Shown here one piece after another: positions 2,361 to 16,045 of a stretch of 20,146 bases of DNA (positions are counted from its first letter, which is position 1; the number at the start of each line of letters is the position of its first letter). A program made the translations under genes and the position numbers. The notes below the pieces were generated by a model. The model was not told the origin of the DNA. It worked only from the letters and a program-made list of their open reading frames with translations, and did not search any database. Source of the stretch: a candidate division WOR-3 bacterium (GTDB lineage: Bacteria; Hydrothermota; Tepidihabitantia; Tepidihabitantales; Tepidihabitantaceae); contig JBDRUN010000038.1 of assembly GCA_039801365.1 (NCBI GenBank), positions 1 through 20,146 on the forward strand, in the 5' to 3' direction.

Positions 2361-4691
2361 GTGCGTAACCGGGAGCTCAAGAGCCGGGAGTCAAGGGAGA
2401 AGGTGCAAGGTGCTGGGCAAGCTGTAGTCCTGGCGCTTACGGTCTGGCAGTTGGCCGCTGGTCTTGCGCTGAGTGCTGATTTCGGAGCGGTGAACGGTTT
2501 TGTCCGCGATGCGACGAGCGGTGAGCCTCTGAACTATGCCAACGTCTATCTCGAGGGTACCGAGCTTGGCGCCGCCACGAACCACAAGGGTTACTACTTC
2601 ATTGGCAGCGTGCCGCCAGCCGAGTACGAGGTCGTCGCTTCGTTCGTCGGTTACACCTCGGTCAGAAGAAAAGTTCAGGTTCAGGCCGGTCAGACAGTTT
2701 CGGTGAATATCGAGCTGAAGCCGGGTGCGGTTGAGCTGGGCGAAGTGAAGGTTACGGCCGAGCGGGCGCGGTTCGAGCGTGAGATCGAGGTGTCGGTTAC
2801 GCGCCTGGAAACCAGGCAGCTCGCACTCGCCCCACGGGTCGGCAGCGAGCAGGACCTGTTCCGGACCGTCCAGCTTCTACCCGGGGTAGTTACGACCTCG
2901 GATTTCTCGAACCGGCTCTACATTCGCGGCGGGTCACCGGACCAGAACCTCATCCTGCTCGATGGTATCAGTGTGTACAACCCCTCGCACCTATTCGGTC
3001 TTTTCTCGCCGTTCATCACCGACGCGGTCTCGGATGTGACGCTGCTTGCCGGCGGGTTTCCGGCGAAGTACGGCGGCCGGCTCAGTTCGGTTCTCGATGT
3101 GACTACAAAGGAGGGCAACTCCCGGCGTTACACCGGGACCGGCTCGGTCTCAATGATTGCGGCCCAGGCGCAGGCCGAGGGGCCGCTGCCTTTAGGCCAA
3201 ATGACCGATTCGACTTCGCGCCGCAGTTCTTTTCTTGTGGCCGGACGGCGTACTTACCTGCCGGAACTGCTGCTCGCCGCCTTTGATGTCCGCGGGCTCG
3301 GATACTACTTCTACGACGCCGTGGCCAAGGTGAACCATGACTTCGCTGCGGACTCGCGACTGACCGTGTCCGGCCTTGCGGCCGAAGACGTACTTTCGTT
3401 CTGGGACCCGGATAACCGCTCATCCCTGGACTCAAGGATGCGCTGGGGCAACCGCGGTGTGTCGGCCCGGTGGAACCGGGTGTTCACACCGGTGCTGTAC
3501 GGGGAGGTTATGGCAGCCTGTAGCAACTTCTATTCACGGTTTGACGTGTCCTTGGGCGAGGGTCAGCATGCCCAGCTTTCGACCGACCTTACTGACCTGA
3601 CGCTCAAGTCCGACTTGACCTGGTACCTTGCCGACCGGCACACCCTTGACCTTGGTCTGGACGCAAAGTATGTTGGAGTGCGCGCCGGCTTTTCCTACGA
3701 CACCCTGACCGTGGTTCCCCGTGACACGCTTGTGCCAGTTGCGGTCTACGCGGACGAAAAATGGGAGCTGGTACCGGAACGACTGTTTGTCAAGTCCGGG
3801 CTGCGCCTGGCGTATGAGTCCAAGGGCAGCCGGTTCGAGCCGGAGCCGCGCATCGGCATCAAGTACCGGCCGGCCGAGAACACCGCTTTCTCGGCCGCGG
3901 CCGGCCGGTTCTGCCAGCCGATGATAACCCTAAACTCGACTGACGTGGTACTCTCGATCTACGATGTGTGGCTGCCGGTCCCGCGTGGCCGACGGCTGCC
4001 TTCGGCGCTGCATTTCGTCGCCGGGGTTGAGCACTGGCTGGCCCGGAACGTGATTGCCGAGTGCGAGGCCTACTACAAGGACTACGCCGACCTGCTTGAG
4101 GTTCGCTACGGCAGTTTCTTTACTCGGCCTGAATCGCTGCTTTCCGCGGACGGCTACTCCTGGGGCCTGGACCTGTCCCTGCGCCGGACCGAAGGACGAA
4201 TCAACGGCTGGGTCAACTACTCGTTTATGTGGACCCGGCGCAGCATCGGCAAGGAAGTCTATCATCCCCATTACGACCGCCGGCACAGTGCGAACGTGGT
4301 AGTCAACCTGCCGGCATTCGTCTGGGGCGCAGACCTTTCAGCCCGCTGGACCTTGGGCACCGGGTTGCCCTATGCCGGCGCACTGGGCTATTATCCCCAG
4401 TACGTCTATATTCCACAGGAACACCGCACGCGGCGAGAATGGAAGTACATCGAAGGCACGCGCGATGCGTTTCGCTACCCTGTGTATCACCGGCTCGATG
4501 CAAGTTTGACCAGAACCTGGCACAAACACTGGGGTGAGATATCGCTGTTCTTTGACGTCGCCAATCTGTACAACGCCGCAAATGTCCTCATCTACTACTG
4601 GGATTACGAAGCCGAAGGCCAGCCGCCGAAGAGAAAACAGGTCGAGATGCTGCCCATCTTGCCAACGCTGGGCGTGAAAGCGAGGTTCTGA
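2361..4691 (+). CDS. TonB-dependent outer-membrane receptor with N-terminal carboxypeptidase-regulatory-like domain and plug
   Basis: Signal peptide 'AVVLALTVWQLAAGLALSA'. CarboxypepD_reg-like block 'FVRDATSGEPLNYANVYLEGT...GYYFIG...YEVVASFVGY'. Plug-domain motifs 'LYIRGGSPDQNLILLDGISVYNPSHLFGLFS...LLAGGFPAKYGGRLSSVLDV'. Long beta-barrel region of 776 aa in total. GTG start with GGAAG SD 5 nt upstream. TGA stop. Confidence 0.9.
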   Translation: MRNRELKSRESREKVQGAGQAVVLALTVWQLAAGLALSADFGAVNGFVRDATSGEPLNYANVYLEGTELGAATNHKGYYFIGSVPPAEYEVVASFVGYTSVRRKVQVQAGQTVSVNIELKPGAVELGEVKVTAERARFEREIEVSVTRLETRQLALAPRVGSEQDLFRTVQLLPGVVTTSDFSNRLYIRGGSPDQNLILLDGISVYNPSHLFGLFSPFITDAVSDVTLLAGGFPAKYGGRLSSVLDVTTKEGNSRRYTGTGSVSMIAAQAQAEGPLPLGQMTDSTSRRSSFLVAGRRTYLPELLLAAFDVRGLGYYFYDAVAKVNHDFAADSRLTVSGLAAEDVLSFWDPDNRSSLDSRMRWGNRGVSARWNRVFTPVLYGEVMAACSNFYSRFDVSLGEGQHAQLSTDLTDLTLKSDLTWYLADRHTLDLGLDAKYVGVRAGFSYDTLTVVPRDTLVPVAVYADEKWELVPERLFVKSGLRLAYESKGSRFEPEPRIGIKYRPAENTAFSAAAGRFCQPMITLNSTDVVLSIYDVWLPVPRGRRLPSALHFVAGVEHWLARNVIAECEAYYKDYADLLEVRYGSFFTRPESLLSADGYSWGLDLSLRRTEGRINGWVNYSFMWTRRSIGKEVYHPHYDRRHSANVVVNLPAFVWGADLSARWTLGTGLPYAGALGYYPQYVYIPQEHRTRREWKYIEGTRDAFRYPVYHRLDASLTRTWHKHWGEISLFFDVANLYNAANVLIYYWDYEAEGQPPKRKQVEMLPILPTLGVKARF

Positions 4692-4694
4692 GTT

Positions 4695-5531
4695 ATGCGC
4701 TGCGCCGGAATCCGAAAGGAAGCAGGTCAAGCCATTGGCAACTGGGGCCTGGTCAGTGCCCTACTGCTCCTTGTGTGCTCCTGTGACCGGCCGTTGTCCG
4801 AGCAGTTCGTACCAAGACTTGCCGTACACGGCCTGCTTGTTGCCGGCCCGCCGGCCCGGCCCGGGGTCTATGTAAACCGCACCTACGCAATCACCGAGCC
4901 CTTTGAACGGGATTTCTCCGGCGCCGAGGTGCTCATCTGGCGCGCTCAGGACACCTGGCGTTTGGATGAACGCGACACGAGCTACTATTACTCAACGGCA
5001 GAACTTGAAGCCAGGCCGTTTGATGAGTTCAGACTCCGGGTGACAAAACCTGGGCTGGACACGCTATACTCGCGTACCGTGGTGCCAGACCGGTTCTCGA
5101 TATTGTACCCGACCCACGGCGACACCGTAGGAGTCGGCGATTCGCTGGTCTGGACCAGAAGCCGGTTCTGCAAGGGTTACTACATGGTACTCAAAGAAGA
5201 GACGCGCGAAGATACACTCTACGCCGCAATTCCGATTCCAAACGAATCACTGCCTGGAATGCCGTACGACACCGCGGTTGCTCGCATCCCAATGTTCTTC
5301 CTGAACCGGGAAAACGCAGGCCCCTTCACCCTGCATCTTTTGGCCTGCGATACCAATTACTATGACTGGATCGAGGCTCTGGCAAGGAACCGGCCAGGCA
5401 GCGACTCGGCCCATGTAACGGGCGGTGTCGGTGTATTCGGCTCCGTGGTCCAATGCTCGGTCCGGGTCTTTGTCCGCCGCGATACGAGCGCGATACAGCC
5501 TACCGGTTGCGCCCTGCTGGATCGGCAGTAG
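4695..5531 (+). CDS. Putative lipoprotein, DUF4249-like partner of CarboxypepD_reg-type TonB receptors (family assignment tentative)
   Basis: Starts 4 nt after the receptor stop with a GAGGT SD. The N-terminus 'LVSALLLLVCSCD' is a signal peptide with a lipobox-like Cys. Size (278 aa) and position immediately downstream of a CarboxypepD_reg/plug receptor match the DUF4249 context as I recall it. No direct motif match can be verified here. Confidence 0.5.
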   Translation: MRCAGIRKEAGQAIGNWGLVSALLLLVCSCDRPLSEQFVPRLAVHGLLVAGPPARPGVYVNRTYAITEPFERDFSGAEVLIWRAQDTWRLDERDTSYYYSTAELEARPFDEFRLRVTKPGLDTLYSRTVVPDRFSILYPTHGDTVGVGDSLVWTRSRFCKGYYMVLKEETREDTLYAAIPIPNESLPGMPYDTAVARIPMFFLNRENAGPFTLHLLACDTNYYDWIEALARNRPGSDSAHVTGGVGVFGSVVQCSVRVFVRRDTSAIQPTGCALLDRQ

Positions 5532-5785: not shown

Positions 5786-5813
5786 TTGACACTTTGGGGT
5801 GGACTTCTATGAT
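5786..5813 (+). promoter_or_regulatory. Near-consensus sigma70 promoter TTGACA-16nt-TATGAT, ending 8 nt before ATG 5822 (possible leaderless transcript)
   Basis: TTGACA at 5786-5791, a 16-nt spacer, then TATGAT at 5808-5813. There is no SD between the -10 element and ATG 5822. Confidence 0.45.
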
Positions 5814-5821
5814 TACCTGGC

Positions 5822-6709
5822 ATGCCGAGCGTTAGACGCACGAAATCCATGCTGGCCAGTTCTGAACGCAGAATTCAGAACTCGGCATTCTTTTGCAATG
5901 CACGGTTGTGGCCGATTGTCTTGCTCGTCGGTATTGCAGTACTAATACTTTCCTGTTCGGACGCGCCCCTGATAACACGGCAGGGCAATCGGGTCGCACT
6001 GGTCGAGCTCTTCACCCAGAGCGGTTGAGCGTATTGCGGGCTCGCGGAGCGGGCCCTGGACAGTTTGGAACTGAAATACGGTGATTCACTGGCGGTTGTT
6101 TACTATTTTCAGAACCGGGCGCTGGAGATTCCAGCTGGCGCAGGTCGGGGCCGCTGGTACTACGGGTATCAGCAGTGGCCGTGGGCGATATTCGGTGGAC
6201 GGTCAGGAGCGCAGGTGACCGACCCTGATTCATTCTACTCGTCGTATGATGCGCAGATTACTCGTTGCCGGGCAGATTCGACACCGATAGAGATGTGGCT
6301 GGATTCGACCGGTACGGTCGTCGCACCGCCAAACGTACGGGTGCGGGTAGTGGTGAATCCAACCGATTCGGTAGTAAACAGTATGCGGAATCTTGCGCTC
6401 GTTGCCGTGGTATATGAAGACAGTGTGCCCTACGAGCAGTTACCAGGCGACACCGTCCACGTCCGGTTTGTGGCACGCGCGGTGGTTGGTGATACGTGGG
6501 GAATACCGCTCAGCCTACGGCTCGGACAGGAGTTCGATACGACCCTTGCGGTGACGCTCGGACAATGGCGGACCGGGTATCTTGGCGTCGCCGCATTCGT
6601 GCAGGACACCGCAAACAAGGAAGTGTTGCAGGCGGTGGTCAGACGCAGGATAGCGAACAGTGAAACGGTGAAGGGGCAAGAAGCAGGACCGTCAGGAGGT
6701 GTTCAATGA
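5822..6709 (+). CDS. Thioredoxin-fold lipoprotein with in-frame UGA (6026-6028); candidate selenoprotein with a U-x-x-C active site
   Basis: ORFs 5822..6028 and 6065..6709 share a frame and are separated only by TGA. Read-through gives 'RVALVELFTQSG-U-AYCGLAERALDSLELKYGDSLAVVYYF', which is thioredoxin beta1-CxxC-alpha1-beta2 with TGA at the first Cys position. The N-terminus 'WPIVLLVGIAVLILSCSD' is a lipoprotein signal. An ATGA overlap joins it to the downstream redoxin. Confidence 0.6.
5858..5882. promoter_or_regulatory. Perfect 9-bp inverted repeat AGTTCTGAA-N7-TTCAGAACT (operator-like), 36-60 nt downstream of the predicted TSS
   Basis: Seen directly: arm 5858-5866 is the exact reverse complement of arm 5874-5882, with a 7-nt spacer CGCAGAA. 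It lies inside the first codons of the 5822 CDS. Confidence 0.3.
6038..6056 (+). promoter_or_regulatory. SECIS-like RNA hairpin downstream of the in-frame UGA
   Basis: GGGCUCGC-GGA-GCGGGCCC forms an 8-bp stem (7 Watson-Crick pairs plus 1 G.U) with a GGA triloop. The stem starts 10 nt after the UGA. The loop guanines sit at +21/+22 from the U of UGA, inside the 16-37 nt window described for bacterial SECIS elements. Confidence 0.45.
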
Positions 6710-7266
6710 GAAACTTGAAGACCGGAGCGCTTATTATGGCCGTGACTGCGCTCGTTTTTCTGGCTGCGGGGCCGACGGAGAAGGAAAAGGAATACGAGGA
6801 AGCCCCAAGTTTCACGCTCAAAGACGTAACCGGCAAAGCGGTGACACTTGAAAGCCTGCTCGTGAAGGGACCGGTGTATATGGAGTGCTGGGACTTGCCG
6901 TGCGTGAACTGTATTGCCGAGCTCGACGCGCTGGTGCCCGTTTACGACTCACTCAAAGACCGGGGTCTTCAGATAGTTGCGCTGTCGGTGGACAAACCGG
7001 CCGACGAGGCCCGAGTCAAGGCGTTTGTGAAGACAAAGAAGTGGCCCTATATCTGTCTTTTGGACCAGCAGCAGGAGGTAAAGTCGGCGTACGGCATCAT
7101 CATCAAACCGACCGCTTATCTCATCAATACCGAAGGTAAGATTGTCTATACCCACATTGGGTATAAGAAGGGCGACGAGAAGCGCATCAAAGAAGAGTTC
7201 CTTAAATGGCTGCCCGAGAAGCCGGTTGAGAAGGATACGTCAGGTGCCAAGAAGAAGGACGACTAG
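6706..7266 (+). CDS. TlpA/ResA-like periplasmic thiol:disulfide oxidoreductase (redoxin family)
   Basis: Signal peptide 'ALIMAVTALVFLAAG'. 'APSFTLKDVTGKAVTLESLLVKGPVYMECWDLPCVNCIAELDALVPVYDSLKDRGLQIVALSVD' matches the TlpA/ResA layout with a CVNC active site. Strong SD AGGAGG at 6694-6699. ATG 6706 overlaps the upstream TGA (ATGA). TAG stop. Confidence 0.85.
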   Translation: MRNLKTGALIMAVTALVFLAAGPTEKEKEYEEAPSFTLKDVTGKAVTLESLLVKGPVYMECWDLPCVNCIAELDALVPVYDSLKDRGLQIVALSVDKPADEARVKAFVKTKKWPYICLLDQQQEVKSAYGIIIKPTAYLINTEGKIVYTHIGYKKGDEKRIKEEFLKWLPEKPVEKDTSGAKKKDD

Positions 7267-7315
7267 AAACATCGGGAGCCAGGAGCCAGAAGCCAAAAAT
7301 CAGAAGTCAAGACCG

Positions 7316-8824
7316 GTGCTGCTGCTCTGTGTGCTGTGCGCCGTATTATGCGTTCTGAGCTCGCGTGCCGCGGAGTTCACCATCCAGGGCGTGAACCGGG
7401 CCGAGTTCTGGGCGTTTCAAGAGAACTGGGCGACCCAGATCGAGGACAAACTTGACCTTGTCCTGCGTTACGGGGACTTGCGCGGCCAGCTTGGCCTTTT
7501 CCTGTATGATCCGTCAAGGCCCTGGGATGCAGTGCGCAAGCCACTACGGCTTGCAGACTTCACCGCGGCCTATAGTCCGAGACAGCTTGAGATTCTCTAC
7601 GGCAAATTTTTTCAGACCTTTGGTAAGGGGCTGACTCTGCGGGCGTACAATGACGAGGAGTTCAGGCACTACAAGAGTCTGCACGGCTTGCGCGGTAGCT
7701 TCCAGTTGCCGGTTTCGACCGAACTAGTGGCGTTCGGTGCCAGGCTGCGGGACGTGTTCTTTCAAGAAAACGCTTACAAGATAATGAACGCTGCCGATAC
7801 ATCTGACCAGGTGCTCGGTGCAGATTTGTCGTCCCAGCCGATCGTCTGGCAGGGTTCGGACTGGACCAGGGGCAATTTCGGATTCGGTGGCCGGTACGTA
7901 CGGATAAACCGCAGCGCCGACCCGACGGCCAAGGCATTCACTGAACTTTTCGGCGGCAACACCTCGACCGCGGTCGGCCCGGTCGAGCTGTACGGCGAAG
8001 CGTGCTGGCGACTCGGCACGAGACCTGGTATCGGCGGGAGAGATCGGGGTTTTGGCTACTACGGCAGTGCTACTCTATTGCTTGCCGGGTACTCCATCAT
8101 CGGACAGATAATGGACTACGACAAGCTCGGGTTTCCGACCGGAGTGTATCACTACAACGACCCGCCGACACCGATACTATCCGGCGTGGCGCTGGACCGG
8201 GGCATTGACGAGCGGGGGTTTGGTCTGACCGTAAACGGTTCGCCGTTGACCCAGCTTTACTTCGAAGGCAACTACGGCCGGCTGTTCCGGCACGACGATT
8301 CAAGCGCCGGAGTGCTGGAATGGCAGGGCAAGGCGCGCTATTCGTTCGGGTCTGACTGGACGTTTGAGGGATCGTTCGATCACATGCTGCAGAAGAACGT
8401 GGAGCTTGGTACCTATGAACGTACTGTGGACAAGCCGGTCGCACACGTGAACTACCTCTGGGGTCAGCACACGTTCGGGCTGGAGGCCGAGTACGCATTC
8501 GTGCGCGAGCGGCCGAGCGACACGACTCAAGCAGCCGGACCCTACCCGTGGAAGTACCACGAGAGCGCAATTGCACTCAGCTACGGGCATAGCGAGGCCC
8601 TGCAGTTCACGCTTGGCTGGCAACGGGTGGACAAGAAGCTGGCCAAGCGGTACAACGACGAGACATCGTGGCCAATACTCGAGGCAGTCTGGAATGTGAC
8701 TCAGCGTAACATGCTTCGAATCCGACTCGGCGCGGAGCGGGGAGGATATACCTGTTCGGGCGGAGTGTGCCGGTTTGAGGCGCCGTTCCGAGGACTGAAA
8801 GTACAGTTCATCTCCAGATTCTGA
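7316..8824 (+). CDS. Putative outer-membrane beta-barrel protein (signal peptide, C-terminal Phe); start uncertain (GTG 7316, but the ORF is open back to 7142)
   Basis: 'LLLCVLCAVLCVLSSRAA|EF' is signal-peptide-like. The ~500-aa body is rich in G/Y/F/W/N/T, as in barrel proteins. C-terminus '...GGYTCSGGVCRFEAPFRGLKVQFISRF' ends in an aromatic residue with alternating hydrophobics, the OMP C-terminal signature. The only in-frame ATG, at 7142, would overlap TlpA by 125 nt and add an Arg-rich tail. TGA stop. Confidence 0.55.
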   Translation: MLLLCVLCAVLCVLSSRAAEFTIQGVNRAEFWAFQENWATQIEDKLDLVLRYGDLRGQLGLFLYDPSRPWDAVRKPLRLADFTAAYSPRQLEILYGKFFQTFGKGLTLRAYNDEEFRHYKSLHGLRGSFQLPVSTELVAFGARLRDVFFQENAYKIMNAADTSDQVLGADLSSQPIVWQGSDWTRGNFGFGGRYVRINRSADPTAKAFTELFGGNTSTAVGPVELYGEACWRLGTRPGIGGRDRGFGYYGSATLLLAGYSIIGQIMDYDKLGFPTGVYHYNDPPTPILSGVALDRGIDERGFGLTVNGSPLTQLYFEGNYGRLFRHDDSSAGVLEWQGKARYSFGSDWTFEGSFDHMLQKNVELGTYERTVDKPVAHVNYLWGQHTFGLEAEYAFVRERPSDTTQAAGPYPWKYHESAIALSYGHSEALQFTLGWQRVDKKLAKRYNDETSWPILEAVWNVTQRNMLRIRLGAERGGYTCSGGVCRFEAPFRGLKVQFISRF

Positions 8825-8892
8825 TCGAATGAACTGCCCAAAGATGTCAAGCAGTCCAACTACGGACAAACGTGGATAAGACTAGGGAAACC

Positions 8893-9033
8893 ATGAGAGC
8901 ATGCAGGGGCAAGGCTGACGTAAACCGTCGAATCGGGTTTATCGTATTGGCACTTGCCGGAGTCGCTGCGGTTATAGCTGGCATCAAGCTCGGGGATCCC
9001 GAAACAATTCACCGGTTTGCGGCTCAGATATGA
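8893..9033 (+). CDS. Small ORF (46 aa) encoding a single-TM peptide, between the OMP and polyferredoxin genes
   Basis: ATG 8893 follows 'AGGGAAACC'. Translation MRACRGKADVNRRIGFIVLALAGVAAVIAGIKLGDPETIHRFAAQI* has one hydrophobic helix. It is below the 60-aa cutoff of the supplied ORF track. No homology can be asserted. Confidence 0.3.
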   Translation: MRACRGKADVNRRIGFIVLALAGVAAVIAGIKLGDPETIHRFAAQI

Positions 9034-9077
9034 CTATCCTGCATGGGGCTCGTGTAGCCCTGATGCGGAAGTGACAG

Positions 9078-10340
9078 ATGCGGAAACGTAGGATCGCGCC
9101 GTTCCGGATAGCCCAGATAGTATCCACTGTTCTTTTGAACGCCTACATTCTGGCTTATCTCCAGAACAAGATATTATACCAAGGATTCTTCAAGCACATA
9201 CCAGAGCCAGTTCTGAACTGCTACGGCGGGCCCCTGGCCGTATTCGCCTGCCCCTTGGGTTCGATGCAGCAGATGATCGGAATGAAGACGGTGCCGTGGC
9301 TGGTTATCGGAGTATTTGTTGTCATCGGCGCCTTCGTGGGCCGGGCCGCGTGCGCCTGGATGTGTCCGTTCGGGTTGTGGCAGGACCTACTGTACAAGGT
9401 CAAGGCCGGGTCCCGGGCTGGCGCAAAACGTTGGGTTGCGGTCGGAGTCATAGGCGGCATCGGCATTCTCGGTATCGCCCTGCTCGTGACATTCCTCCAC
9501 GTTGTCTGGTGGCGGCCTTTGGTGTATGGGTGGGTGCCCTTCATGGCGCTGGTGCTTTTCGTGATGCTTCGGGGCAAGCTTGATATCCCGCAATACCTGC
9601 ACGTCGGCGGCTTTGTCGCCGGCGTTGGGCTTGGTGCGTTCGTCTGGCTTAAGTACGGTGCTGGGTTCGGCGTGGTCGCCGGCGTGGCCGGAATGGTTGC
9701 TATCGGACTACTGGGCCGCTGGTACGGAGCAATAGTTGCGGCCCTGGCCGGGTTCCTTCTGGCCCGGTTCGGGCCCGATTTTGCTGTCGGCCCACTTTCG
9801 GGTGCGACGCTGGGCATCGTACTTGCTGCGGTCAGTGCCGGGCTCGTTTTAGTTCTCGACGTTTTCGCCGGACTGCGGCTGCCGTCAACGTTTCTCAAGT
9901 ACGGCTTTTTTGTACTCGTGGCCGGGGTGGCTTCGTATTTGACAGTTGAGCCATGGTTCTGCAAGCTGTGCCCCCAGGGTACGCTTGGCGCCGGCATACC
10001 GCTTGTCCTCTGGGACCCAGTAAACGCCCTGCGCGGACTTGTCGGCTGGCTGTATTGGGTCAAGGTCGGAATCCTGCTTCTGGTCGTGGCTGCGGCCATC
10101 GCCATCAAGCGACCGTTCTGCCGGCTGGTCTGTCCGATTGGCGCAATCTACGGCGTGTTCAACAAAGTTAGCCTGCTGCGTCTGCGCCTGGAATCGGCGA
10201 AATGCACCCGTTGCGGGCTGTGCCGCAAGGTGTGCCCGATGAATATCGAGCCGCTTGACGAGCAGAATCAGCTTGAGTGCATCCGGTGTTTCGAATGCGT
10301 CTGGCGCTGTCCAAAGAGCGGTTTACGCATCACCGTCTAG
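9078..10340 (+). CDS. NapH/MauN/CcoG(FixG)-type membrane polyferredoxin (4Fe-4S-binding integral membrane protein)
   Basis: Repeated membrane-proximal C-x3-CP motifs 'RAACAWMCPFGLWQDL', 'FCKLCPQGTLG' and 'FCRLVCPIGAIYG' (the NapH/NosR-type xCxxxCPxGalQd signature). Multiple TM helices. C-terminal ferredoxin motifs 'CTRCGLCRKVCP' and 'CIRCFECVWRCP'. TAG stop. Confidence 0.8.
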   Translation: MRKRRIAPFRIAQIVSTVLLNAYILAYLQNKILYQGFFKHIPEPVLNCYGGPLAVFACPLGSMQQMIGMKTVPWLVIGVFVVIGAFVGRAACAWMCPFGLWQDLLYKVKAGSRAGAKRWVAVGVIGGIGILGIALLVTFLHVVWWRPLVYGWVPFMALVLFVMLRGKLDIPQYLHVGGFVAGVGLGAFVWLKYGAGFGVVAGVAGMVAIGLLGRWYGAIVAALAGFLLARFGPDFAVGPLSGATLGIVLAAVSAGLVLVLDVFAGLRLPSTFLKYGFFVLVAGVASYLTVEPWFCKLCPQGTLGAGIPLVLWDPVNALRGLVGWLYWVKVGILLLVVAAAIAIKRPFCRLVCPIGAIYGVFNKVSLLRLRLESAKCTRCGLCRKVCPMNIEPLDEQNQLECIRCFECVWRCPKSGLRITV

Positions 10341-10360
10341 AGGCTACACTTCCCGCCGAG

Positions 10361-11278
10361 ATGAGAAAACCGGACTGGCTCAGAACAAGGCTCGCGACCG
10401 GGCCCGAATTCGAGAAACTGAACCAGCGGCTGCGGCGCTTGGAGCTGAAAACAGTCTGCACGCAGGCCCGGTGTCCGAATCTCGCCGACTGCTGGGGTCG
10501 TGGAACCGCGACGTTCATGATTCTCGGCAATGTCTGCACCCGACGCTGCCGGTTCTGCTCGGTCGCGACCGGGAATCCACACGGCGCAGTTGACAGGACC
10601 GAGCCCCAGCGAGTGGCCGCGGCGGTAGCCGAACTTGGCCTACGCTACGTAGTCCTCACATCGGTAAACCGGGACGACCTTGAAGACTGTGGTGCGGGCG
10701 CATTCGCACTGACCATCAACGCCTGTCGGACTTGTCCAACAGGTCGAATCGGACCAACGTGTGAGCCTCCCGGCATCGAGGTGCTCACACCGGACTTTGG
10801 CGGCCGGGAGGCGCTGATTCATCAGGTGGTCGAGGCCGGGCCGGACGTGTTCGGACACAATATCGAGACAGTCGAACGGCTGAGTCCGGTGGTACGCGAC
10901 GCCCGGGCATCGTACCGGCGTTCGCTTGGAGTGTTGGCGCTGGCGAAAAAGCTGGCACCAGCGAAGATGGTGAAGAGCGGGTTGATGGTCGGGCTGGGCG
11001 AGACTGACGCCGAAGTTGAGCAGGCGATGCGTGACCTGCTTACGGCCGGGTGCGACATCATTACCATTGGCCAGTACCTTCAGCCAAACCACCGATGCCT
11101 GCCAGTCCGGCGCTATGTCGAGCCGGCGCGATTCTCCGAATGGCAGGAGCAGGCGCTGGCGCTTGGTTTCAGTTCGGCGTACTGCGGTCCTTTGGTACGA
11201 AGCTCATTTCACGCGGAAGAAGTTTTGCGTGGGACGGGGCTAAACCATCTCGGCTTCAAGTTTCCAGAAAGACCGTGA
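10361..11278 (+). CDS. lipA: Lipoyl synthase
   Basis: 'KPDWLRTRL', 'CTQARCPNLADCW...GTATFMILGNVCTRRCRFCSV' (the radical-SAM CxxxCxxC plus the second cluster motif), and the C-terminal 'TIGQYLQP...H' block. ATG 10361 lies 20 nt after the upstream stop. The GTG 10277 of the ORF track lies inside the previous gene. Confidence 0.95.
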   Translation: MRKPDWLRTRLATGPEFEKLNQRLRRLELKTVCTQARCPNLADCWGRGTATFMILGNVCTRRCRFCSVATGNPHGAVDRTEPQRVAAAVAELGLRYVVLTSVNRDDLEDCGAGAFALTINACRTCPTGRIGPTCEPPGIEVLTPDFGGREALIHQVVEAGPDVFGHNIETVERLSPVVRDARASYRRSLGVLALAKKLAPAKMVKSGLMVGLGETDAEVEQAMRDLLTAGCDIITIGQYLQPNHRCLPVRRYVEPARFSEWQEQALALGFSSAYCGPLVRSSFHAEEVLRGTGLNHLGFKFPERP

Positions 11279-12642
11279 GCAGTCTGACCGAGCAGCAGAT
11301 AGCGCGCGGGCTTCGGGTGTCGGTCATCGAGGGTTCATTTGCAACACTCTATGCAACTCTGGCTGGTGGGATGTTTCTCACCGGCCTTGCACTCTACCTT
11401 GGGGCAAATTCGTTCCACATCGCGCTGATTACTGCAATTCCAGCGCTCGTGACCGGGTTCGGTTTTTCGGCCGGGTATCTCGTGCGCCGGGTCGGCTCGC
11501 GCAAGAAACTTGTTATCGTCACTGCGGGAATCGGCCGGGCGGTCTATGCGGTACTCGTGCCGTTCCTCTTGCTGCGGATGCGCGTCGGGCTCGGACTCTT
11601 CTTCGCAGTCGTCGCGGTTTCGAGCATCCTAATGACAATGGCCGGTACAATCTGGACTTCATGGATGAGCGACTTTGTTCCGGAAGACCGGAGGGGCCGG
11701 TTCTTTGGTACGCGGAACGCGATTCTCGGTATCATCGGTGTCACGGCTGCCTATGCGGCGGGCCGTGGCATGGACGGACTTAAGGCTGCCGGACTCGAGC
11801 CGCTCGGATACGGCATCGCCTTTGGACTGGCGGTGGTGTTCGGACTGGGCTCGACCATCGGTCTGTTCCAGCAACCTGAGCCGAAGCTTGAGCCCAGGCC
11901 GGCTTCGGGTCTGCGTGAGCTTCTGTTCGGCCCGCTGCGCGAGCCGCAGTTCCGTCGGCTCACTGTCTTCCTCGCAGTTTGGTTTCTCACCGGCACGCTT
12001 GCCTCGCCGTTCTACATCGTGCACTTGCTGAAAAACCTGCGCTTTCCCTTCGCAGCCATCGGCGTGTATTCGATTCTCGGTGGTATGACCGGAATGGTAT
12101 TTCAGCTCGTCTGGGGTCGGCTCATTGACCGTTTCGGCGCACGGCCGGTAACGGTGCTCAACTTCGGGGTAGTCGGTGTGATGCCCCTGCTCTGGCTGTT
12201 TGCGACTCCGAGTTTCCGGCTGCCGATATGGCTGGACGGGCTGTGTAACGGCATCATCTGGTCCGGCGCGAGTCTCGGACTGTGGAATCTGCTACTGGAA
12301 CTTGCGGACAATCCGGCCCGCAAGGAGAGCTATTTCGCTATCTACACGGTCGTAACTGGACTGTGCGCGTTCCTGGCGTCGCTTCTGTCCGGAGTCATTG
12401 CCCAGTCTCTACACGGTTTCCGGGTTGTGGTGTTCGGACAGGAGTTTGTGAACTACGATGTGCTCTTTCTCGCCGCCGGGGTGGCGCGGTTTGCTTGCCT
12501 GCCCCTACTGGTACGGGTCCAAGAGCCGGGCAGTCAGTCGGTCCCGCATACTGCCCGTGTGCTCTCAACTTGGGCGCTCTGGCGTATCAACTCGGGCAAG
12601 GATGCGCTCCTCGAAGCACTCGGGCTTCGAAATCGCGAGTGA
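11275..12642 (+). CDS. MFS-type transporter (12 predicted TM helices), translationally coupled to lipA
   Basis: GTG 11275-11277 overlaps the lipA TGA 11276-11278 (GTGA). Product 'SSLTEQQIARGLRVSVIEGSF...' carries many hydrophobic helices and a 'GRLIDRFGARP'-type loop motif typical of MFS. The long 5' extension in the ORF track (11050) overlaps lipA and is discounted. TGA stop. Confidence 0.8.
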   Translation: MSSLTEQQIARGLRVSVIEGSFATLYATLAGGMFLTGLALYLGANSFHIALITAIPALVTGFGFSAGYLVRRVGSRKKLVIVTAGIGRAVYAVLVPFLLLRMRVGLGLFFAVVAVSSILMTMAGTIWTSWMSDFVPEDRRGRFFGTRNAILGIIGVTAAYAAGRGMDGLKAAGLEPLGYGIAFGLAVVFGLGSTIGLFQQPEPKLEPRPASGLRELLFGPLREPQFRRLTVFLAVWFLTGTLASPFYIVHLLKNLRFPFAAIGVYSILGGMTGMVFQLVWGRLIDRFGARPVTVLNFGVVGVMPLLWLFATPSFRLPIWLDGLCNGIIWSGASLGLWNLLLELADNPARKESYFAIYTVVTGLCAFLASLLSGVIAQSLHGFRVVVFGQEFVNYDVLFLAAGVARFACLPLLVRVQEPGSQSVPHTARVLSTWALWRINSGKDALLEALGLRNRE

Positions 12643-12662
12643 TAGTGGATCCCGGTGGCGAT

Positions 12663-12690
12663 TTGACTGACCGGCCGGGCGGGATATAAT
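12663..12690 (+). promoter_or_regulatory. Near-consensus sigma70 promoter TTGACT-16nt-TATAAT upstream of rpmA
   Basis: TTGACT at 12663-12668, a 16-nt spacer, then TATAAT at 12685-12690. About 50 nt of 5'-UTR follows, then SD AGGAGAAAGG and ATG 12743. Confidence 0.45.
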
Positions 12691-12742
12691 CACCGTCCGC
12701 ATGGAAGAGAAGATCAGGATTGAAGTTTAGGAGAAAGGACTT

Positions 12743-13021
12743 ATGGCACACAAGAAAGGCGGCGGTACAGCAAAGAACGGCCGAGATTCTGCCGGCCAGC
12801 GCCTGGGCGTGAAGTGCTTTGGTTCCCAAGTGGTGCGCTGCGGTAACATCCTGGTGCGACAGCGCGGCACCAGGTTTCTGCCCGGCGTGAACGTCCGGCG
12901 GGCCAAGGACGACACGCTGTTTGCAGCTGCGGATGGCGTGGTCCGGTTTGATTTCGTGTCGAAGAACAAGAAACGCATTTCAGTAGTTTCAGGAGAAACG
13001 AGCTGCATACGACAGCACTAG
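12743..13021 (+). CDS. rpmA: 50S ribosomal protein L27
   Basis: '[69 protein letters not shown]' is the classical L27 sequence pattern. Strong SD. TAG stop. Confidence 0.95.
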
Positions 13022-13127
13022 TGAGACAAACCGTCCGGACCGAATTTCCGGTGGTGCCTGTACCGCCGGTCCCGGTGTGCCTTGTGTCGCAGCATCCGGG
13101 TTGGTCCGACAAGGGGAGGAGAAGAAG

Positions 13128-13784
13128 GTGAAGGTGAAATGGTTCGGTCACGCGGCGTTTCTTCTTGTCGCATCCGACGGCACGAAGATTATCGCTGATC
13201 CGTACATTCCTGGATGCTTTGATAATGCACTGTGCTATGGTCAGATTTCTGAAACAGCCGACGCGGTAACGGAAAGCCACGATCATGATGACCACGCCGG
13301 AGGCCGGATGCTGCCCGGACGCCCACCGGTACTGCGGGGCGCGGGCGAACATCAGGTCAAGTCCATCACCATCACCGGTCTTGATACTGCGCACGATGAC
13401 GCGGCCGGAGCAAAGCGCGGCCGCAACACGGTGTTCCTTTATTGCATTGATGGTCTGAAGATTGTACATCTTGGGGACCTTGGTGAACCCCTGCCCGCGG
13501 CGGTTAGCTCAGCCATAGGACAGGTTGATGTGCTCCTGGTACCGGTCGGCGGCTATTTTACGATTGACGCGACCCAGGCTCACAAGACAGCAGAAGCGCT
13601 CGGTGCACGTATCATCATTCCCATGCACTACCGGACCGGAAAATGCAGCTTTCAGATTCAGCCAGTTGACCAATTTCTTCAGGGCCGGGTCGGGGTCCGA
13701 CGCTTCGGTACGAGCGAAGTAGAAATAACCAAGGACAAGCTGCCTGCAGCGCCGGAGATTTGGGTGCTGCACCATGCTCTTTGA
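13128..13784 (+). CDS. UPF0173-type metal-dependent hydrolase (MBL fold)
   Basis: GTG 13128 follows SD AAGGGGAGGAG at 13111-13121. 'MKVKWFGHAAFLLVASDGTKIIADPY...ESHDHDDH...VHLGDLG...IIIPMHY' matches UPF0173 (MKITWLGHA...IDPF...H.H.DH). The upstream part of the ORF-track start (13077) lacks an RBS and looks spurious. Confidence 0.8.
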   Translation: MKVKWFGHAAFLLVASDGTKIIADPYIPGCFDNALCYGQISETADAVTESHDHDDHAGGRMLPGRPPVLRGAGEHQVKSITITGLDTAHDDAAGAKRGRNTVFLYCIDGLKIVHLGDLGEPLPAAVSSAIGQVDVLLVPVGGYFTIDATQAHKTAEALGARIIIPMHYRTGKCSFQIQPVDQFLQGRVGVRRFGTSEVEITKDKLPAAPEIWVLHHAL

Positions 13785-13793
13785 GGAACCGGC

Positions 13794-14636
13794 GTGAAGG
13801 AAATTGCATTTGAGCAGGTCCGAGACACGGTGGCGAAACTGTGCATTGATGCCAATTGTGTGCTGGGCGATGACATGGTGCAGGCTTTCAGGCGGGCCTT
13901 GAATCAGGAGGAGTCCCCGACCGGGAAGGACATCCTGAACCAGTGTCTTGCGAACCAGGAAATTGCCCGGACTGAGATGATGCCGATATGCCAGGATACT
14001 GGCTGGGCCGTAGTCTGGGTTGAGATCGGCTCTGGGGTCAGGATTGCCGGCGGCGAGCTCGCTGACGCCATCCGCGAGGGCGTAGCCAAAGGTTATAAGG
14101 AAGGTTATCTGCGAAAGTCCATTGTTGCCGACCCGCTGCGGCGCAAGAACACCGGTGACAACACGCCACCGATAATCTACACCGACATCGTACCGGGTGA
14201 GAGACTGAAGATTACGGTCCAGCCCAAGGGCGGAGGCTCCGAGAACATGAGCGAGGTGAAGATGCTCTCGGCTGCGGACGGCGAAGAGGGCATCAAGCGT
14301 TTCGTGGTGGACCGGGTGGCGCGGTCCAAGGCCAATCCATGCCCGCCGGTCATTGTCGGCGTAGGTATTGGCGGTACTTTTGAGAAGTGTGCGATGCTTG
14401 CCAAGCACGCGCTGCTGCGTGAGATCGGCTCGGTTCACCCGGACCCATTCTATGCGGCGATGGAAAATGATATCCTGGAGCGGGTGAACAACCTCGGCAT
14501 CGGCCCCCAGGGTCTGGGCGGCCGGGTGACTGCCTTGGCGGTATTCATCGAGGCGTTTCCGTGTCACATCGCAACGATGCCCTGCGCAGTGAACATCAAT
14601 TGTCACGCGGCGCGGCACAAGTCCGTGGTGCTGTAA
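13794..14636 (+). CDS. Class I (Fe-S) fumarate hydratase, alpha subunit (N-terminal catalytic domain)
   Basis: 'CQDTGWAVVWVEIG', 'NTGDNTPPIIY', 'KGGGSENMS', 'CPPVIVGVGIGGTFEKCAMLAK' and 'GIGPQGLGGRVTALAV...CHIATMPCAVNINCHAARH'. These are the Fe-S hydro-lyase, tartrate/fumarate alpha-region signatures. GTG start with a GAGGA SD. TAA stop. Confidence 0.9.
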   Translation: MKEIAFEQVRDTVAKLCIDANCVLGDDMVQAFRRALNQEESPTGKDILNQCLANQEIARTEMMPICQDTGWAVVWVEIGSGVRIAGGELADAIREGVAKGYKEGYLRKSIVADPLRRKNTGDNTPPIIYTDIVPGERLKITVQPKGGGSENMSEVKMLSAADGEEGIKRFVVDRVARSKANPCPPVIVGVGIGGTFEKCAMLAKHALLREIGSVHPDPFYAAMENDILERVNNLGIGPQGLGGRVTALAVFIEAFPCHIATMPCAVNINCHAARHKSVVL

Positions 14637-14643
14637 GATAGAG

Positions 14644-15195
14644 ATGGCCAAGCGAATCACTACACCACTCACCGAGGAGACGGTGTGCAAGCTCGTGGCC
14701 GGTGACACGGTGCTTATTTCAGGTACCATCTACACTGGCCGAGACTTGGCGCATAAGAAACTGACCGATGCACTGAAAGCTGGTGAACAACTGCCCTTCG
14801 ACCTTGCCGGTGCGGTGATTTACTACGTCGGGCCGTCGCCGGCCAAACCGGGCAAGCCCATTGGTTCGGCCGGACCGACTACGTCGTACCGTATGGACGT
14901 ATATTCACCGTTGCTCATCGAACATGGACTGCGCGGCATGATCGGCAAGGGCAACAGGACCCAGCCGGTGCTTGACGCGATAGTAAGATACCATGCGGTT
15001 TACTTTGCCGCGGTCGGCGGTGCAGCAGCGCTTATCTCGCGAAGCATTAAGCAGGCCAAGGTTATTGCCTACCCGGAGCTTGGGCCCGAGTCCGTGCAGG
15101 AGCTTGTGGTCGAAGACTTCCCCGCAGTGGTTGTGAACGACATCTACGGCGCTGACCTGTACGAGCAGGGCGTGGCCAAGTACAGAAAAGGATGA
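14644..15195 (+). CDS. Class I fumarate hydratase, beta subunit (C-terminal domain)
   Basis: 'LISGTIYTGRDLAHKKL', 'VIYYVGPSP', 'IGSAGPTTSYRMD', 'MIGKGNR', 'AVYFAAVGGAAAL' and 'VEDFPAVVVNDIYGADLY'. These are the Fe-S hydro-lyase beta-region signatures. TGA stop. Confidence 0.9.
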   Translation: MAKRITTPLTEETVCKLVAGDTVLISGTIYTGRDLAHKKLTDALKAGEQLPFDLAGAVIYYVGPSPAKPGKPIGSAGPTTSYRMDVYSPLLIEHGLRGMIGKGNRTQPVLDAIVRYHAVYFAAVGGAAALISRSIKQAKVIAYPELGPESVQELVVEDFPAVVVNDIYGADLYEQGVAKYRKG

Positions 15196-15201
15196 CCCCC
15201 G

Positions 15202-15939: not shown

Positions 15940-16045
15940 GAAGTGAAGCAGCGCGCAAACCAACATGAATGCAGGCAGACTCGTGTCACCGAACCGCTGG
16001 GCGCTGTATGCTGGGTTCTGACGTCCATGCTTTTGGGAGGTTGCG

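Follow-up and report, generated by a model that had tools for sequence, protein, structure and literature searches.

Several described systems resemble parts of the locus analyzed here. In the DsbD/CcdA to TlpA/ResA/CcmG pathway, a membrane electron importer feeds an extracytoplasmic redoxin of the TlpA family that reduces specific partners, and to our knowledge redoxins of the TlpA/ResA/CcmG type are reductants in every studied case. NapH and its relatives (MauN, NosH, NosR, and CcoG) pass electrons between membrane and periplasmic partners and have two CX3CP motifs after transmembrane helices as well as a C-terminal pair of CxxCxxCxxxCP [4Fe-4S] motifs. The CD1871A family (NF040920) has a single transmembrane helix followed by a C-terminal ...[C/U]-L-[S/E]-C-[M/I]-G motif, and its gene lies immediately 5' of that of a "4Fe-4S binding protein". 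Members of the Omp28 family (P. gingivalis Omp28; NF033782, PF11551) are lipoproteins in which an N-terminal thioredoxin-like (C/U)xxC segment precedes the Omp28 domain, and their selenocysteine (Sec) branch, "Omp28-related selenoprotein" NF045500 (= "GOS_C"), already figures among the predicted selenoproteins. In the FCB barrel-lipoprotein pairs (SusCD, RagAB, and BtuBG), an outer-membrane barrel is encoded beside a lipoprotein. Finally, [4Fe-4S] clusters reduce a nearby disulfide in ferredoxin:thioredoxin reductase and heterodisulfide reductase; these enzymes are a mechanistic precedent for Fe-S-driven disulfide reduction by analogy only, being soluble or cytoplasmic and having no sequence relationship to the cluster described below.

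No named system corresponds to this cluster, as the original prediction had supposed. Within the window (the whole stretch of 20,146 nucleotides that was analyzed, on a candidate division WOR-3 contig), positions 5786–12642 of the + strand hold a tightly packed operon encoding, in order, an Omp28-family lipoprotein, a TlpA/ResA-like redoxin, a DUF6029 barrel, a mini membrane protein, a NapH-like polyferredoxin, LipA, and an MFS transporter (table 1). The five consecutive genes first proposed as a cluster were all found in place behind the expected promoter. The -10 element of this promoter ends 8 nt before the lipoprotein ATG, so the operon mRNA is probably leaderless, and an equivalent promoter-like site occurs at the matching position (~8 nt 5' of the ATG) in ~31 orthologous loci. 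The lipoprotein and TlpA genes share the anticipated ATGA (6706–6709), and the barrel gene, with the NCBI start at GTG 7244, overlaps the end of tlpA (7266) as suggested. A sigma-70-like scan of the window revealed no further promoter-like site between this promoter and 12663, and LipA follows the polyferredoxin in essentially all WOR-3 loci; thus, the transcription unit probably extends beyond the five genes, through LipA and the MFS gene to 12642.

Table 1. Features of the putative operon and its boundaries in the window
Feature	Position	Strand	Basis or remark
Sigma-70-like promoter TTGACA-16-TATGAT	5786..5813	+	11/12 consensus match
Omp28-family thioredoxin-fold selenolipoprotein (predicted), 295 aa	5822..6709	+	NF033782 E=3.6e-11, NF045500 E=1.3e-6, both below cut-offs
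UGA predicted to be read as Sec, first site	6026..6028	+	In-frame TGA then xxC, kept in 32 loci
SECIS-like hairpin 1: 8-bp stem, loop G(G/U)N, starts 9 nt after UGA	6038..6056	+	Covariation
TlpA/ResA-like periplasmic thiol-disulfide oxidoreductase	6706..7266	+	AhpC-TSA 73 bits, Redoxin 56 bits, above cut-off; ResA 82 bits, below cut-off
DUF6029 outer-membrane beta-barrel	7244..8824	+	Start uncertain, GTG 7244 = NCBI call
C-S-G-G-V-C at tip of last beta-hairpin, within ERGGYTCSGGVCRFEAPFRGLK	8753..8770	+	Invariant among orthologs
Mini single-pass membrane selenoprotein (predicted), 54 aa, MRACRGKADVNRRIGFIVLALAGVAAVIAGIKLGDPETIHRFAAQI-U-LSCMGLV	8893..9057	+	Sec form of CD1871A-type CXXC small proteins
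UGA predicted to be read as Sec, second site	9031..9033	+	Downstream frame conserved
SECIS-like hairpin 2 GGGGCU-CGUGU-AGCCCU, starts 11 nt after UGA, spans stop codon	9045..9061	+	Covariation
NapH-like integral-membrane polyferredoxin, 420 aa	9078..10340	+	Fer4_5; napH 54 bits vs cut-off 213
Lipoyl synthase LipA	10361..11278 (start 10295 or 10361)	+	TIGR00510, 361 bits, above cut-off
MFS transporter, last gene of putative operon	11311..12642 (start approximate)	+	MFS_1 match
Next sigma-70-like promoter TTGACT-16-TATAAT	12663..12690	+	Marks downstream boundary of operon

The lipoprotein contains a lipobox Cys (Cys45) and the redox motif U69-A-Y-C72 in the context VELFTQSG-U-AYC. A CxxC aligned with this motif, with Cys in place of the TGA, occurs in P0022, L052, and L054 as well as in 24 homologs from metagenomes, and homologs in public annotation end early at the equivalent TGA. 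The hairpin after this codon was paired in 98% of cells, against 30–57% in slid controls, and showed compensatory changes in five of its eight pairs. The earlier suggestion that the lipoprotein contains Sec is strongly supported by the UxxC motif, the covarying SECIS hairpin, and the Cys orthologs. Its scores are far below both Omp28 cut-offs (42.8 vs. 150 and 28.1 vs. 200), implying a separate, divergent subfamily, whose fixed operon partners have not been described previously.

T9SS C-terminal sorting domains occur in several of the Omp28-like paralogs that adjoin these clusters, and a partial selD adjoins Cys-type Omp28-like genes in one locus (L009). P. gingivalis Omp28 is a surface protein according to the passage of PMC7290125 that cites Slakeski 2002.

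The second Sec codon was found in the mini membrane protein, which had been taken for a plain transmembrane peptide ending at 9033, its selenocysteine being missed. The TGA at this place is internal (...AAQI-U-LSCMGLV), and the ORF, starting at ATG 8893, runs on to the TAG at 9055–9057, so the gap to the polyferredoxin gene is 20 nt and not 44 nt. In 42 loci (40 nonredundant), the TGA is followed by in-frame L-[SPG]-C-M-G-L-[VG] and then TAG or TAA, the codons after the TGA varying at synonymous third positions. Cys orthologs from L049, L050, L056, and 24 metagenomic loci read CLSCMG. The second hairpin was paired in 97.5% of cells; its pair 18-28, which joins a Gly wobble base to the first noncoding base, occurs as GC (20 sequences), CG (11), or UA (9), all sequences being paired there. 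We predict that the mini peptide is the second selenoprotein of the operon. Its Gram-positive ortholog (Peptoclostridium; P. acidaminophilum; 63 bits) bears the PGAP name "CD1871A family CXXC protein", whereas the WOR-3 proteins, in which Sec replaces the first Cys of that family, score 22.6–27.8 bits against the NF040920 profile (cut-off 32). The CD1871A family is a name only, with no mention in the literature searched, and both the family and this 54-residue membrane peptide are absent from the selenoprotein table of a 2026 review.

Synteny had been set beforehand as the test of the proposed cluster. The operon order is kept in ~39 species representatives of WOR-3 with unrelated upstream flanks, and the core is found again in distant lineages (L049/L050, L056, and 73 nonredundant metagenomic loci); it is a real operon, conserved in several little-known bacterial phyla. 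Among 51 diverse metagenomic loci, TlpA is located directly 5' of DUF6029 in 49, an Omp28-like gene lies at most 5.5 kb away in 36, and the polyferredoxin gene follows immediately downstream in 24. The mini CxxC motif was detected in exactly those 24, the mini and polyferredoxin genes being strictly paired, and about half of DUF6029 loci have no neighboring electron-input gene. It had also been considered that the NapH-like gene might belong to a separate nap, nos, or cco operon. In the loci examined it was never beside such genes and was always preceded by a mini CxxC/UxxC gene and DUF6029.

The TlpA-like redoxin begins with a signal or anchor segment, and its CxxC (C66-V-N-C69) is invariant in 36–40 orthologs. 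The C-terminus of the DUF6029 protein is aromatic (...ISRF). Its structure model is poor (pLDDT 55), and the modeled portion matches outer-membrane barrels in structure comparison, in agreement with the barrel originally predicted. As in SusCD, RagAB, and BtuBG, the most conserved loops are predicted to be extracellular; unlike those pairs, this putative one lacks a TonB box or plug domain and has a redox protein as its lipoprotein in place of a binding lid. The Cys-x-Gly-Gly-x-Cys motif noted earlier is indeed present, but C-x4-C was found in nearly all of 149 DUF6029 family representatives and, judging from these sequences, is a hallmark of the whole family and not of this cluster alone. Strand order would place the Cys hairpin on the extracellular side, so that a periplasmic TlpA could reach it only before assembly or via the lumen.

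The polyferredoxin contains two C-terminal [4Fe-4S] motifs and two CX3CP motifs. Based on the positive-inside rule, from which the topology of this protein and of the mini tail was drawn, the CX3CP motifs are predicted to be cytoplasmic and the Cys pairs C48/C58 and C295/C298 periplasmic. All 16 Cys are invariant in 40 orthologs. An AF2 model (pLDDT 82, but <50 for residues 38–56 including C48) shows a helical membrane bundle and a ferredoxin domain and has no fold match in the PDB. In this model the window protein carries a six-helix insertion, whereas compact homologs consist of a four-TM core. Besides this insertion, an obligate small CxxC/UxxC partner and scores far below the family cut-offs, the protein differs from the NapH family in two extra invariant Cys pairs (Cx9CP and CxxCP) in predicted outer loops, which as far as we know are absent from E. 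coli NapH. These pairs could alternatively bind metal or a cluster.

Two lineages bear on the role of the polyferredoxin. In Cloacimonadota (L052/L053), the order is DsbD, Omp28-like (CVNC), TlpA, and DUF6029, without polyferredoxin; this replacement by DsbD concerns one lineage, represented by two near-identical contigs, and the DsbD profile had no match near the other 80 metagenomic loci. On a megaplasmid of the Gram-positive P. acidaminophilum, a CD1871A-family mini protein gene overlaps the start of a polyferredoxin gene whose product is 42% identical to that of the window and keeps all Cys, and a TlpA-family lipoprotein is encoded ~1.5 kb upstream of the mini gene, with an opposite-strand MFS gene between. 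Since DsbD takes the place of the polyferredoxin in the former and the TlpA/CD1871A/polyferredoxin set recurs in the latter, the comparison suggests that polyferredoxin and mini peptide supply electrons, and both loci support the thiol relay originally envisaged. In addition, a GltD-like NAD(P)H/FAD/Fe-S oxidoreductase directly follows the polyferredoxin in L056 and in 7 of the 24 metagenomic loci.

With gene linkage across phyla, strict mini/polyferredoxin pairing, the invariance of every Cys/Sec, and two Sec codons (both backed by Cys orthologs and by a covarying SECIS-like hairpin) established, we consider it probable (roughly 60%) that the operon encodes a reductive thiol/selenol-disulfide relay of the envelope serving outer-membrane thioredoxin-like proteins; its substrate, electron direction, and surface step we infer. 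A cytoplasmic donor (ferredoxin, or NAD(P)H via the GltD-like partner in some lineages) would reduce the two-[4Fe-4S] ferredoxin domain at the C-terminus of the NapH-like protein. Electrons would then cross the four cytoplasmic-face Cys of both CX3CP motifs and reach the invariant periplasmic Cys pairs and the C-terminal U-L-S-C of the mini selenoprotein, the two proteins together filling the role that DsbD/CcdA has elsewhere. Family membership and gene linkage suggest that reduction on the periplasmic side then passes to the TlpA/ResA-like redoxin (CVNC). This redoxin may in turn serve an outer-membrane module made up of the Omp28-family lipoprotein (U-A-Y-C) and the DUF6029 barrel, whose hairpin bears the invariant Cys-x4-Cys; the module would act on an oxidized substrate at the outer membrane or outside it. 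Such a relay would differ from the DsbD/CcdA pathway in its importer, a nonhomologous NapH-like Fe-S membrane protein with a 45–54 aa CxxC/UxxC peptide, in its clients, which would be an outer-membrane barrel and Omp28-type lipoproteins rather than cytochrome c, Sco, or DsbC, and in the predicted use of Sec by two components.

Metal or chalcogen handling is an unlikely alternative, in which the polyferredoxin reduces Cu(II), Fe(III), selenite, tellurite, or polysulfide in the manner of the cupric reductase CcoG, the CxxC/UxxC proteins are metallochaperones, and DUF6029 is an uptake or efflux porin. Such motifs can bind soft metals, the polyferredoxin is weakly similar to CcoG and NosR, one locus has a NikR/TonB receptor/ZnuABC cluster upstream, and the partial selD of L009 would also fit; however, metal-related neighbors are not conserved across WOR-3 loci, and the CcoG and NosR scores fall far short of the family thresholds (29 vs. 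a cut-off of 317 and 21 vs. 1000). The constant TlpA-type partner and the DsbD replacement in one lineage agree better with protein thiol exchange.

Less likely again is an oxidative or redox-sensing path, running from periplasmic thiols/selenols through the mini protein and polyferredoxin to the cytoplasm or quinone, as a DsbB/VKOR-like disulfide former for the Cys-bearing barrel and lipoproteins. The electron trade of NapH relatives would allow it, and the Cys pairs of the barrel and Omp28-like proteins could be structural disulfides. However, the studied TlpA-type redoxins are reductants, the Cloacimonadota cluster contains DsbD, a reductant importer, the GltD-like oxidoreductase points to cytoplasmic electron input, and the hosts, judging from context genes, appear to be anaerobic and ferredoxin-using.

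We regard as lower still the chance that TlpA and its donor merely keep the Cys of DUF6029 and Omp28-like proteins reduced or properly paired during periplasmic transit, with the assembled barrel serving as a common porin or polysaccharide channel and having no redox function. To fold one barrel, an electron-input module of its own plus two selenoproteins would be heavy machinery, and the catalytic-type CxxC/UxxC of the Omp28-like proteins, with its Sec/Cys switching, is typical of enzymes and not of structural disulfides.

That no functional unit exists, the synteny being inherited (some is expected among related WOR-3 genomes) and both TGAs, at which public annotation ends the two genes, being ordinary stops or pseudogene lesions, is scarcely credible and was rejected, as the cluster is intact while upstream flanks differ, its core recurs in distant lineages and partly in a Gram-positive, and each TGA has conserved protein on either side, Cys orthologs, and a hairpin that covaries at a fixed distance.

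The conservation of the two last genes of the putative operon, LipA and the MFS gene, counts against the preferred reading, a reductive relay, which gives them no role. LipA, which is probably cotranscribed with the cluster, follows the polyferredoxin in 4 of 24 other loci and does not do so in L049/L050, L056, or L137. The window MFS protein showed no specific relationship to that of L137. It is less closely tied to the cluster: the gene is present in most, not all, WOR-3 loci, and insertions sometimes intervene.

Seven closely packed genes lie on the + strand between 5786 and 12642 (see table). The row of five described by the original prediction, running from an Omp28-family lipoprotein to a NapH-like polyferredoxin, is present as claimed and is extended here to seven by genes for lipoyl synthase (LipA) and an MFS transporter, both apparently transcribed together with the redox genes but showing no evident functional link to them. 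The sole promoter-like sites of the region, TTGACA-16-TATGAT (5786-5813) and TTGACT-16-TATAAT (12663-12690), flank this set on either side. A sigma-70-like promoter was detected in the equivalent position in about 31 orthologous loci, and because its -10 element ends ~8 nt upstream of the lipoprotein ATG, the sequence suggests a leaderless mRNA. For the mini membrane ORF, GTA at 8920 was discarded in favor of the ATG listed in the table, as GTA is no start codon. The TonB receptor and DUF4249 genes were likewise rejected as members of the system because their neighborhood with the operon is not kept in other genomes.

Coordinates of the genes in the operon and its surroundings
Feature	Position	Strand	Remarks
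DUF5131 gene	66-671		Left end of window
TonB-dependent receptor with CarboxypepD_reg domain, then DUF4249 lipoprotein-like gene	2361-5531		Directly upstream of operon
Omp28-family lipoprotein	5822-6709	+	In-frame TGA at 6026-6028
TlpA/ResA-like redoxin	6706-7266	+	ATGA overlap with lipoprotein gene; CVNC motif
DUF6029 outer-membrane protein	7244-8824	+	GTG start
Mini membrane ORF	Starts 8893	+	ATG start
NapH-like polyferredoxin	9078-10340	+	
Lipoyl synthase LipA	Ends 11278	+	LipA and MFS region 10295-12642
MFS transporter	Ends 12642	+	
Class I fumarate hydratase subunits, Fe-S protein, FAD-binding fumarate reductase/succinate dehydrogenase-like gene	13794-17701		Downstream, separate from operon
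rve-family integrase	18611-19588	-	

Translated through the in-frame TGA, the lipoprotein has 295 aa, its lipobox Cys at position 45 and the motif VELFTQSG-U69-AYC72; the database homologs are all fragments of ~190-208 aa which start 3' of the TGA. In 32 loci that form two subfamilies (...ELF(T/S)...U-x-x-C), the TGA and the following xxC are conserved, as is the protein on both sides of them, including the lipobox and N-terminal segment. Cys replaces Sec in the identical syntenic slot of a Cys-type homolog, P0022 (CVYC), and of the related loci L054 (CIPC) and L052 (CVNC), and the Omp28-like neighbors in metagenomic loci comprise 24 CxxC versus at least 15 UxxC forms. A SECIS-like hairpin of 8 bp with the apical loop G(G/U)N occupies positions +13 to +31 from the UGA; 98% of its cells are paired, with compensatory changes in five of the eight pairs, compared with 30-57% pairing in shifted controls. 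This hairpin and the one discussed below were defined by alignment and covariation rather than by Rfam, whose gathering and permissive scans matched no SECIS or other RNA family. Neither selA, selB, selC nor selD was found within the 20-kb window, and a tRNA scan of the window gave no tRNA-Sec. The conserved TGA/xxC, the Cys homologs, the CxxC/UxxC mixture and the covarying hairpin thus argue for Sec at this position, in agreement with the original prediction of a lipid-anchored, Sec-containing Trx protein.

The lipoprotein scores below the cut-offs of the Omp28 models (NF033782, 42.8 bits vs. 150; PF11551, 19.4 vs. 34.9), although the alignment spans residues 53-277, the whole mature length, implying a real but distant homology. 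The model for an 'Omp28-related selenoprotein' (NF045500), which a 2026 review equates with the predicted selenoprotein family 'GOS_C', gave 28.1 bits against a cut-off of 200, although the UxxC is present. Judged by these subthreshold scores for NF033782 and NF045500, the predicted protein is a new, divergent Sec-containing branch of the Omp28 type. PDB sequence searches with the lipoprotein, the barrel and the polyferredoxin gave marginal matches only. In one related locus (L029, 15606-16304), a second Omp28-like selenoprotein (FVEEAYQEG-U-GSC) directly follows the MFS gene, and another (L005, 9611-10399) has a comparable paralog that ends in a T9SS sorting domain. Several seleno-Omp28 paralogs, truncated by annotation, are apparently present in WOR-3 genomes. 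In an unrelated bacterium (L009, 1334-5114; also L010), two Cys-type Omp28-like genes, one encoding 598 aa with a T9SS tail, adjoin a short selD-like gene which scores 139 bits on TIGR00476 but encodes only 203 aa. This neighbor may either link the Omp28 family to selenium metabolism or be a decayed gene.

A second selenoprotein gene of the operon, first recognized in this analysis, is predicted in the mini ORF. This ORF is present in every WOR-3 locus and encodes a positively charged N-terminus and one transmembrane (TM) helix, followed by GDPETIHRFAAQI. Its apparent stop is invariably TGA, after which the frame continues with L-[S/P/G]-C-M-G-L-[V/G] and then TAG or TAA (42 loci); the product in the window would have 54 aa and end in U-L-S-C-M-G-L-V. 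Cys occupies the Sec position in locus L056 (...VM-C-LSCMGIE), in two low-GC genomes (L049/L050, ...LL-C-LSCMGLG) and in 24 metagenomic loci (...CLSCMG...), and the seven post-UGA codons vary at synonymous third positions. A 6-bp hairpin (+15 to +31), which begins 11 nt 3' of the UGA and includes the stop codon, is 97.5% paired. Its pair 18-28, between a Gly-codon wobble base and the first base beyond the translated sequence, is GC in 20 sequences, CG in 11, UA in 9 and unpaired in none. The +1 frame at the 3' end of this gene (8872-9057), which reads RYD(C/Y)PAWGSCSP in many loci, was dismissed as a shadow of the U-LSCMGLV codons and the hairpin rather than a separate gene.

With U replaced by C, the WOR-3 mini protein scores 22.6-27.8 bits against the NCBIfam CD1871A family of CXXC motif-containing proteins (NF040920), just below the cut-off of 32. 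It resembles this family in the TM helix and C-terminal CxxC, in the location immediately 5' of a Fer4_5 polyferredoxin gene, and in the common motif [C/U]L[S/E]C[M/I]G. The searched literature contained no mention of the CD1871A family, and a CD1871A-type mini is absent from the selenoprotein table of the 2026 review. The peptide would be a new prokaryotic selenoprotein family, and public annotation of these genomes cuts two genes per operon short at Sec codons.

The redoxin scores above the cut-offs of PF00578 (73.3 vs. 26) and PF08534 (56.5 vs. 26.6), and its invariant CVNC and hydrophobic N-terminus are those of a TlpA/ResA-type redoxin. It is not ResA proper, since it reaches 82 against a cut-off of 170 on the subfamily model NF002854. 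An extra Cys is located five residues ahead of the CxxC (ECWDLPCVNC, 6886-6915, residues 61-70); 31 of 36 orthologs share it, and L049/L050 have Phe instead.

The next product scores above the gathering threshold of DUF6029 (PF19494); it is predicted to fold as an outer-membrane beta-barrel and carries a Cys-x4-Cys hairpin near its C-terminus. The sole paper found to mention DUF6029 notes a likeness to Wzi-type 18-stranded barrels. A profile search yielded 662 representative clusters of this family. Across WOR-3 the barrel is 55-75% identical, an unusually high conservation, and includes the invariant motif ERGGxxCSGGVCRxExPFxGxK, whose Cys-x4-Cys is general to the family. An AF2 model, poor in the N-terminal half (15 sequences, pLDDT 55), served for strand order and generic barrel similarity alone. 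When strands are counted back from the periplasmic C-terminus, the Cys hairpin and the most conserved long loop (YHYNDPPTPI...GVDERG) would be extracellular.

All 16 Cys residues of the polyferredoxin are invariant in 40 orthologs. Eight belong to two C-terminal [4Fe-4S] motifs (C376-C386 and C401-C411), four to two CX3CP motifs (C92/C96 and C348/C352) and four to the additional pairs C48/C58 (Cx9CP) and C295/C298 (CxxCP). Judged by the positive-inside rule and the hydrophobic segments of the compact homologs L049 and L056, the ferredoxin domain and both CX3CP motifs would be cytoplasmic, whereas C48/C58 and C295/C298 would lie in periplasmic loops. AF2 predicted a confident helical bundle of about ten TM helices (pLDDT 82) with low confidence in the loop at C48; six of them form an insertion which L056, with its 4-TM core, lacks. 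A Foldseek search of the model against PDB gave no significant match.

NapH, NosR and CcoG models match the polyferredoxin weakly, NapH chiefly in the C-terminal half. Both CX3CP and both C-terminal [4Fe-4S] motifs are shared with NapH; however, the NapH cut-offs are missed (TIGR02163, 54 vs. 213; NF007013, 52.8 vs. 234), and nap genes (napG, napA) are absent from all of more than 120 loci, which argues against the gene belonging to a separate nap/nos/cco operon. By these sequence features, the protein is a member of the NapH-like superfamily, though not NapH itself. A GltD-like NAD(P)H oxidoreductase gene (Pyr_redox_2/Fer4_20) lies immediately 3' of the polyferredoxin in L056 (9539-11101) and in seven metagenomic loci; loci of this kind include L064, L074-L076, L080, L123 and L125. 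Its product is a candidate cytoplasmic electron donor.

A species-level scan with one genome per species revealed 39 loci, nearly throughout from WOR-3. By tblastn, the genes follow one another as lipoprotein, TlpA, DUF6029, mini, polyferredoxin, LipA (and MFS) wherever the contig is long enough; neither the TonB receptor nor DUF4249 accompanies them in any locus. Contigs with equal gene order have unrelated upstream neighbors (DUF3108, NikR, a FlgD_ig protein, CutA, a glycosyltransferase), and the synteny on which the original prediction depended is thus maintained in WOR-3. The low-GC genomes L049/L050 have a core of TlpA, DUF6029, mini and polyferredoxin only, with a barrel 33% identical, flanked by a type III CRISPR-Cas module on one side and succinyl-CoA synthetase on the other; in L049 (3573-6700) the flanking genes encode Csm4, a RAMP protein and Csm6 with CARF and HEPN domains. 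Other arrangements include DsbD, Omp28-like (CVNC), TlpA, DUF6029 and Omp28-like with a T9SS-type tail in Cloacimonadota (L052/L053); Omp28-like (CIPC), a 153-aa protein, TlpA, DUF6029 and Omp28-like (CGPC) in L054; TlpA and DUF6029 alone in Coatesbacteria (L055); and Omp28-like (UPSC), TlpA, DUF6029, mini (CLSC), polyferredoxin and the GltD-like gene in L056.

A metagenome scan added 73 non-redundant loci, 51 of which were used for counting neighbors. A same-strand TlpA gene is immediately 5' of DUF6029 in 49 of the 51, an Omp28-like gene lies within 5.5 kb in 36, and the polyferredoxin is immediately 3' in 24. The mini CxxC motif is confined to precisely these 24 polyferredoxin loci. About half of the DUF6029 loci are without an adjacent electron-input gene. 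In all WOR-3 loci and in one further lineage (L057-L062), but nowhere else, LipA comes next after the polyferredoxin; the MFS gene is a less constant neighbor than LipA. The uncharacterized DUF6029 (~660 representative clusters) gains a functional context from its almost obligatory association with a TlpA-type redoxin and with Trx lipoproteins of the Omp28 type. Literature searches on DUF6029, CD1871A, Omp28 selenoproteins and WOR-3 selenocysteine found no account or name of this system, as had been supposed. The individual parts belong to known kinds; the gene combination, the Fe-S-based input module in the place of DsbD and the mini selenoprotein appear to be new.

TlpA-family redoxins are reductants that depend on a membrane electron importer. 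No DsbD_TM domain was found in the window, and among the loci DsbD occurs only in L052/L053, the Cloacimonadota cluster, which has a true DsbD and lacks both polyferredoxin and mini. The Gram-positive Peptoclostridium acidaminophilum encodes a CD1871A-family mini protein (63.4 bits) whose gene overlaps the 5' end of a polyferredoxin gene; the product of the latter is 42% identical to that of L056 and retains every Cys. A TlpA-family lipoprotein gene is ~1.5 kb upstream, with an opposite-strand MFS gene intervening, and the locus has neither a barrel nor an Omp28-like gene. On account of this gene, MFS was examined as a possible conserved component and rejected, as the P. acidaminophilum and window transporters share only 20% identity, a generic level. 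Considering the need of TlpA for an importer, the exchange with DsbD, the strict coupling of polyferredoxin and mini, the GltD-like neighbor and the P. acidaminophilum locus, the polyferredoxin and mini most likely act together to feed electrons into a TlpA-type redoxin, as a counterpart of DsbD/CcdA by functional analogy and not by family membership. In the FCB group, the clients of this module would be the DUF6029 barrel and Omp28-type Trx proteins.

Envelope reductive pathways are held to depend on DsbD/CcdA. A second solution for supplying reducing power to the envelope, distributed from Clostridia to candidate FCB phyla, is suggested here, composed of an Fe-S membrane protein of NapH-like type and a very small CxxC/UxxC peptide which so far has had a database name only. 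Cys-form modules occur in the cultivated P. acidaminophilum and are hence experimentally accessible.

Within the limits of sequence analysis, the trans-envelope relay of the original prediction is supported. In its full form, to which we assign a probability of about one in four, the polyferredoxin and the 45-54-residue CxxC/UxxC mini would be a DsbD-independent, Fe-S-driven transmembrane disulfide reductase which, in the FCB group, heads a two-membrane relay exporting cytoplasmic reducing power outside the cell. Electrons would pass from TlpA to a redox-active DUF6029 Cys hairpin and on to surface Trx-fold proteins of the Omp28 type (lipoproteins and T9SS cargo).

The cluster might instead be a metal or chalcogen handling system, which we consider unlikely; its polyferredoxin differs from the CcoG/RdxA/FixG cupric reductases in reaching 29 bits on TIGR02745 against a cut-off of 316.7. 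An oxidative pathway in place of a reductive relay would have to employ a redoxin of a reductant family, and is regarded as somewhat more doubtful still. A role in biogenesis only is the least probable of these readings.

If the relay exists in this full, two-membrane form, reducing power would be available outside the cell, for example for reducing extracellular protein disulfides or keeping surface cysteine proteases active. Several Omp28-like paralogs beside the clusters carry T9SS sorting domains, and Omp28 of P. gingivalis is reported as a surface protein in a passage of PMC7290125 which cites Slakeski 2002; the relay may therefore end on the cell surface. The DsbD-Omp28-TlpA-DUF6029 cluster of L052 adjoins a Peptidase_C25 gene (12220-13473) of the gingipain family whose product has a FlgD_ig domain, a neighborhood compatible with a role in keeping surface cysteine proteases reduced.
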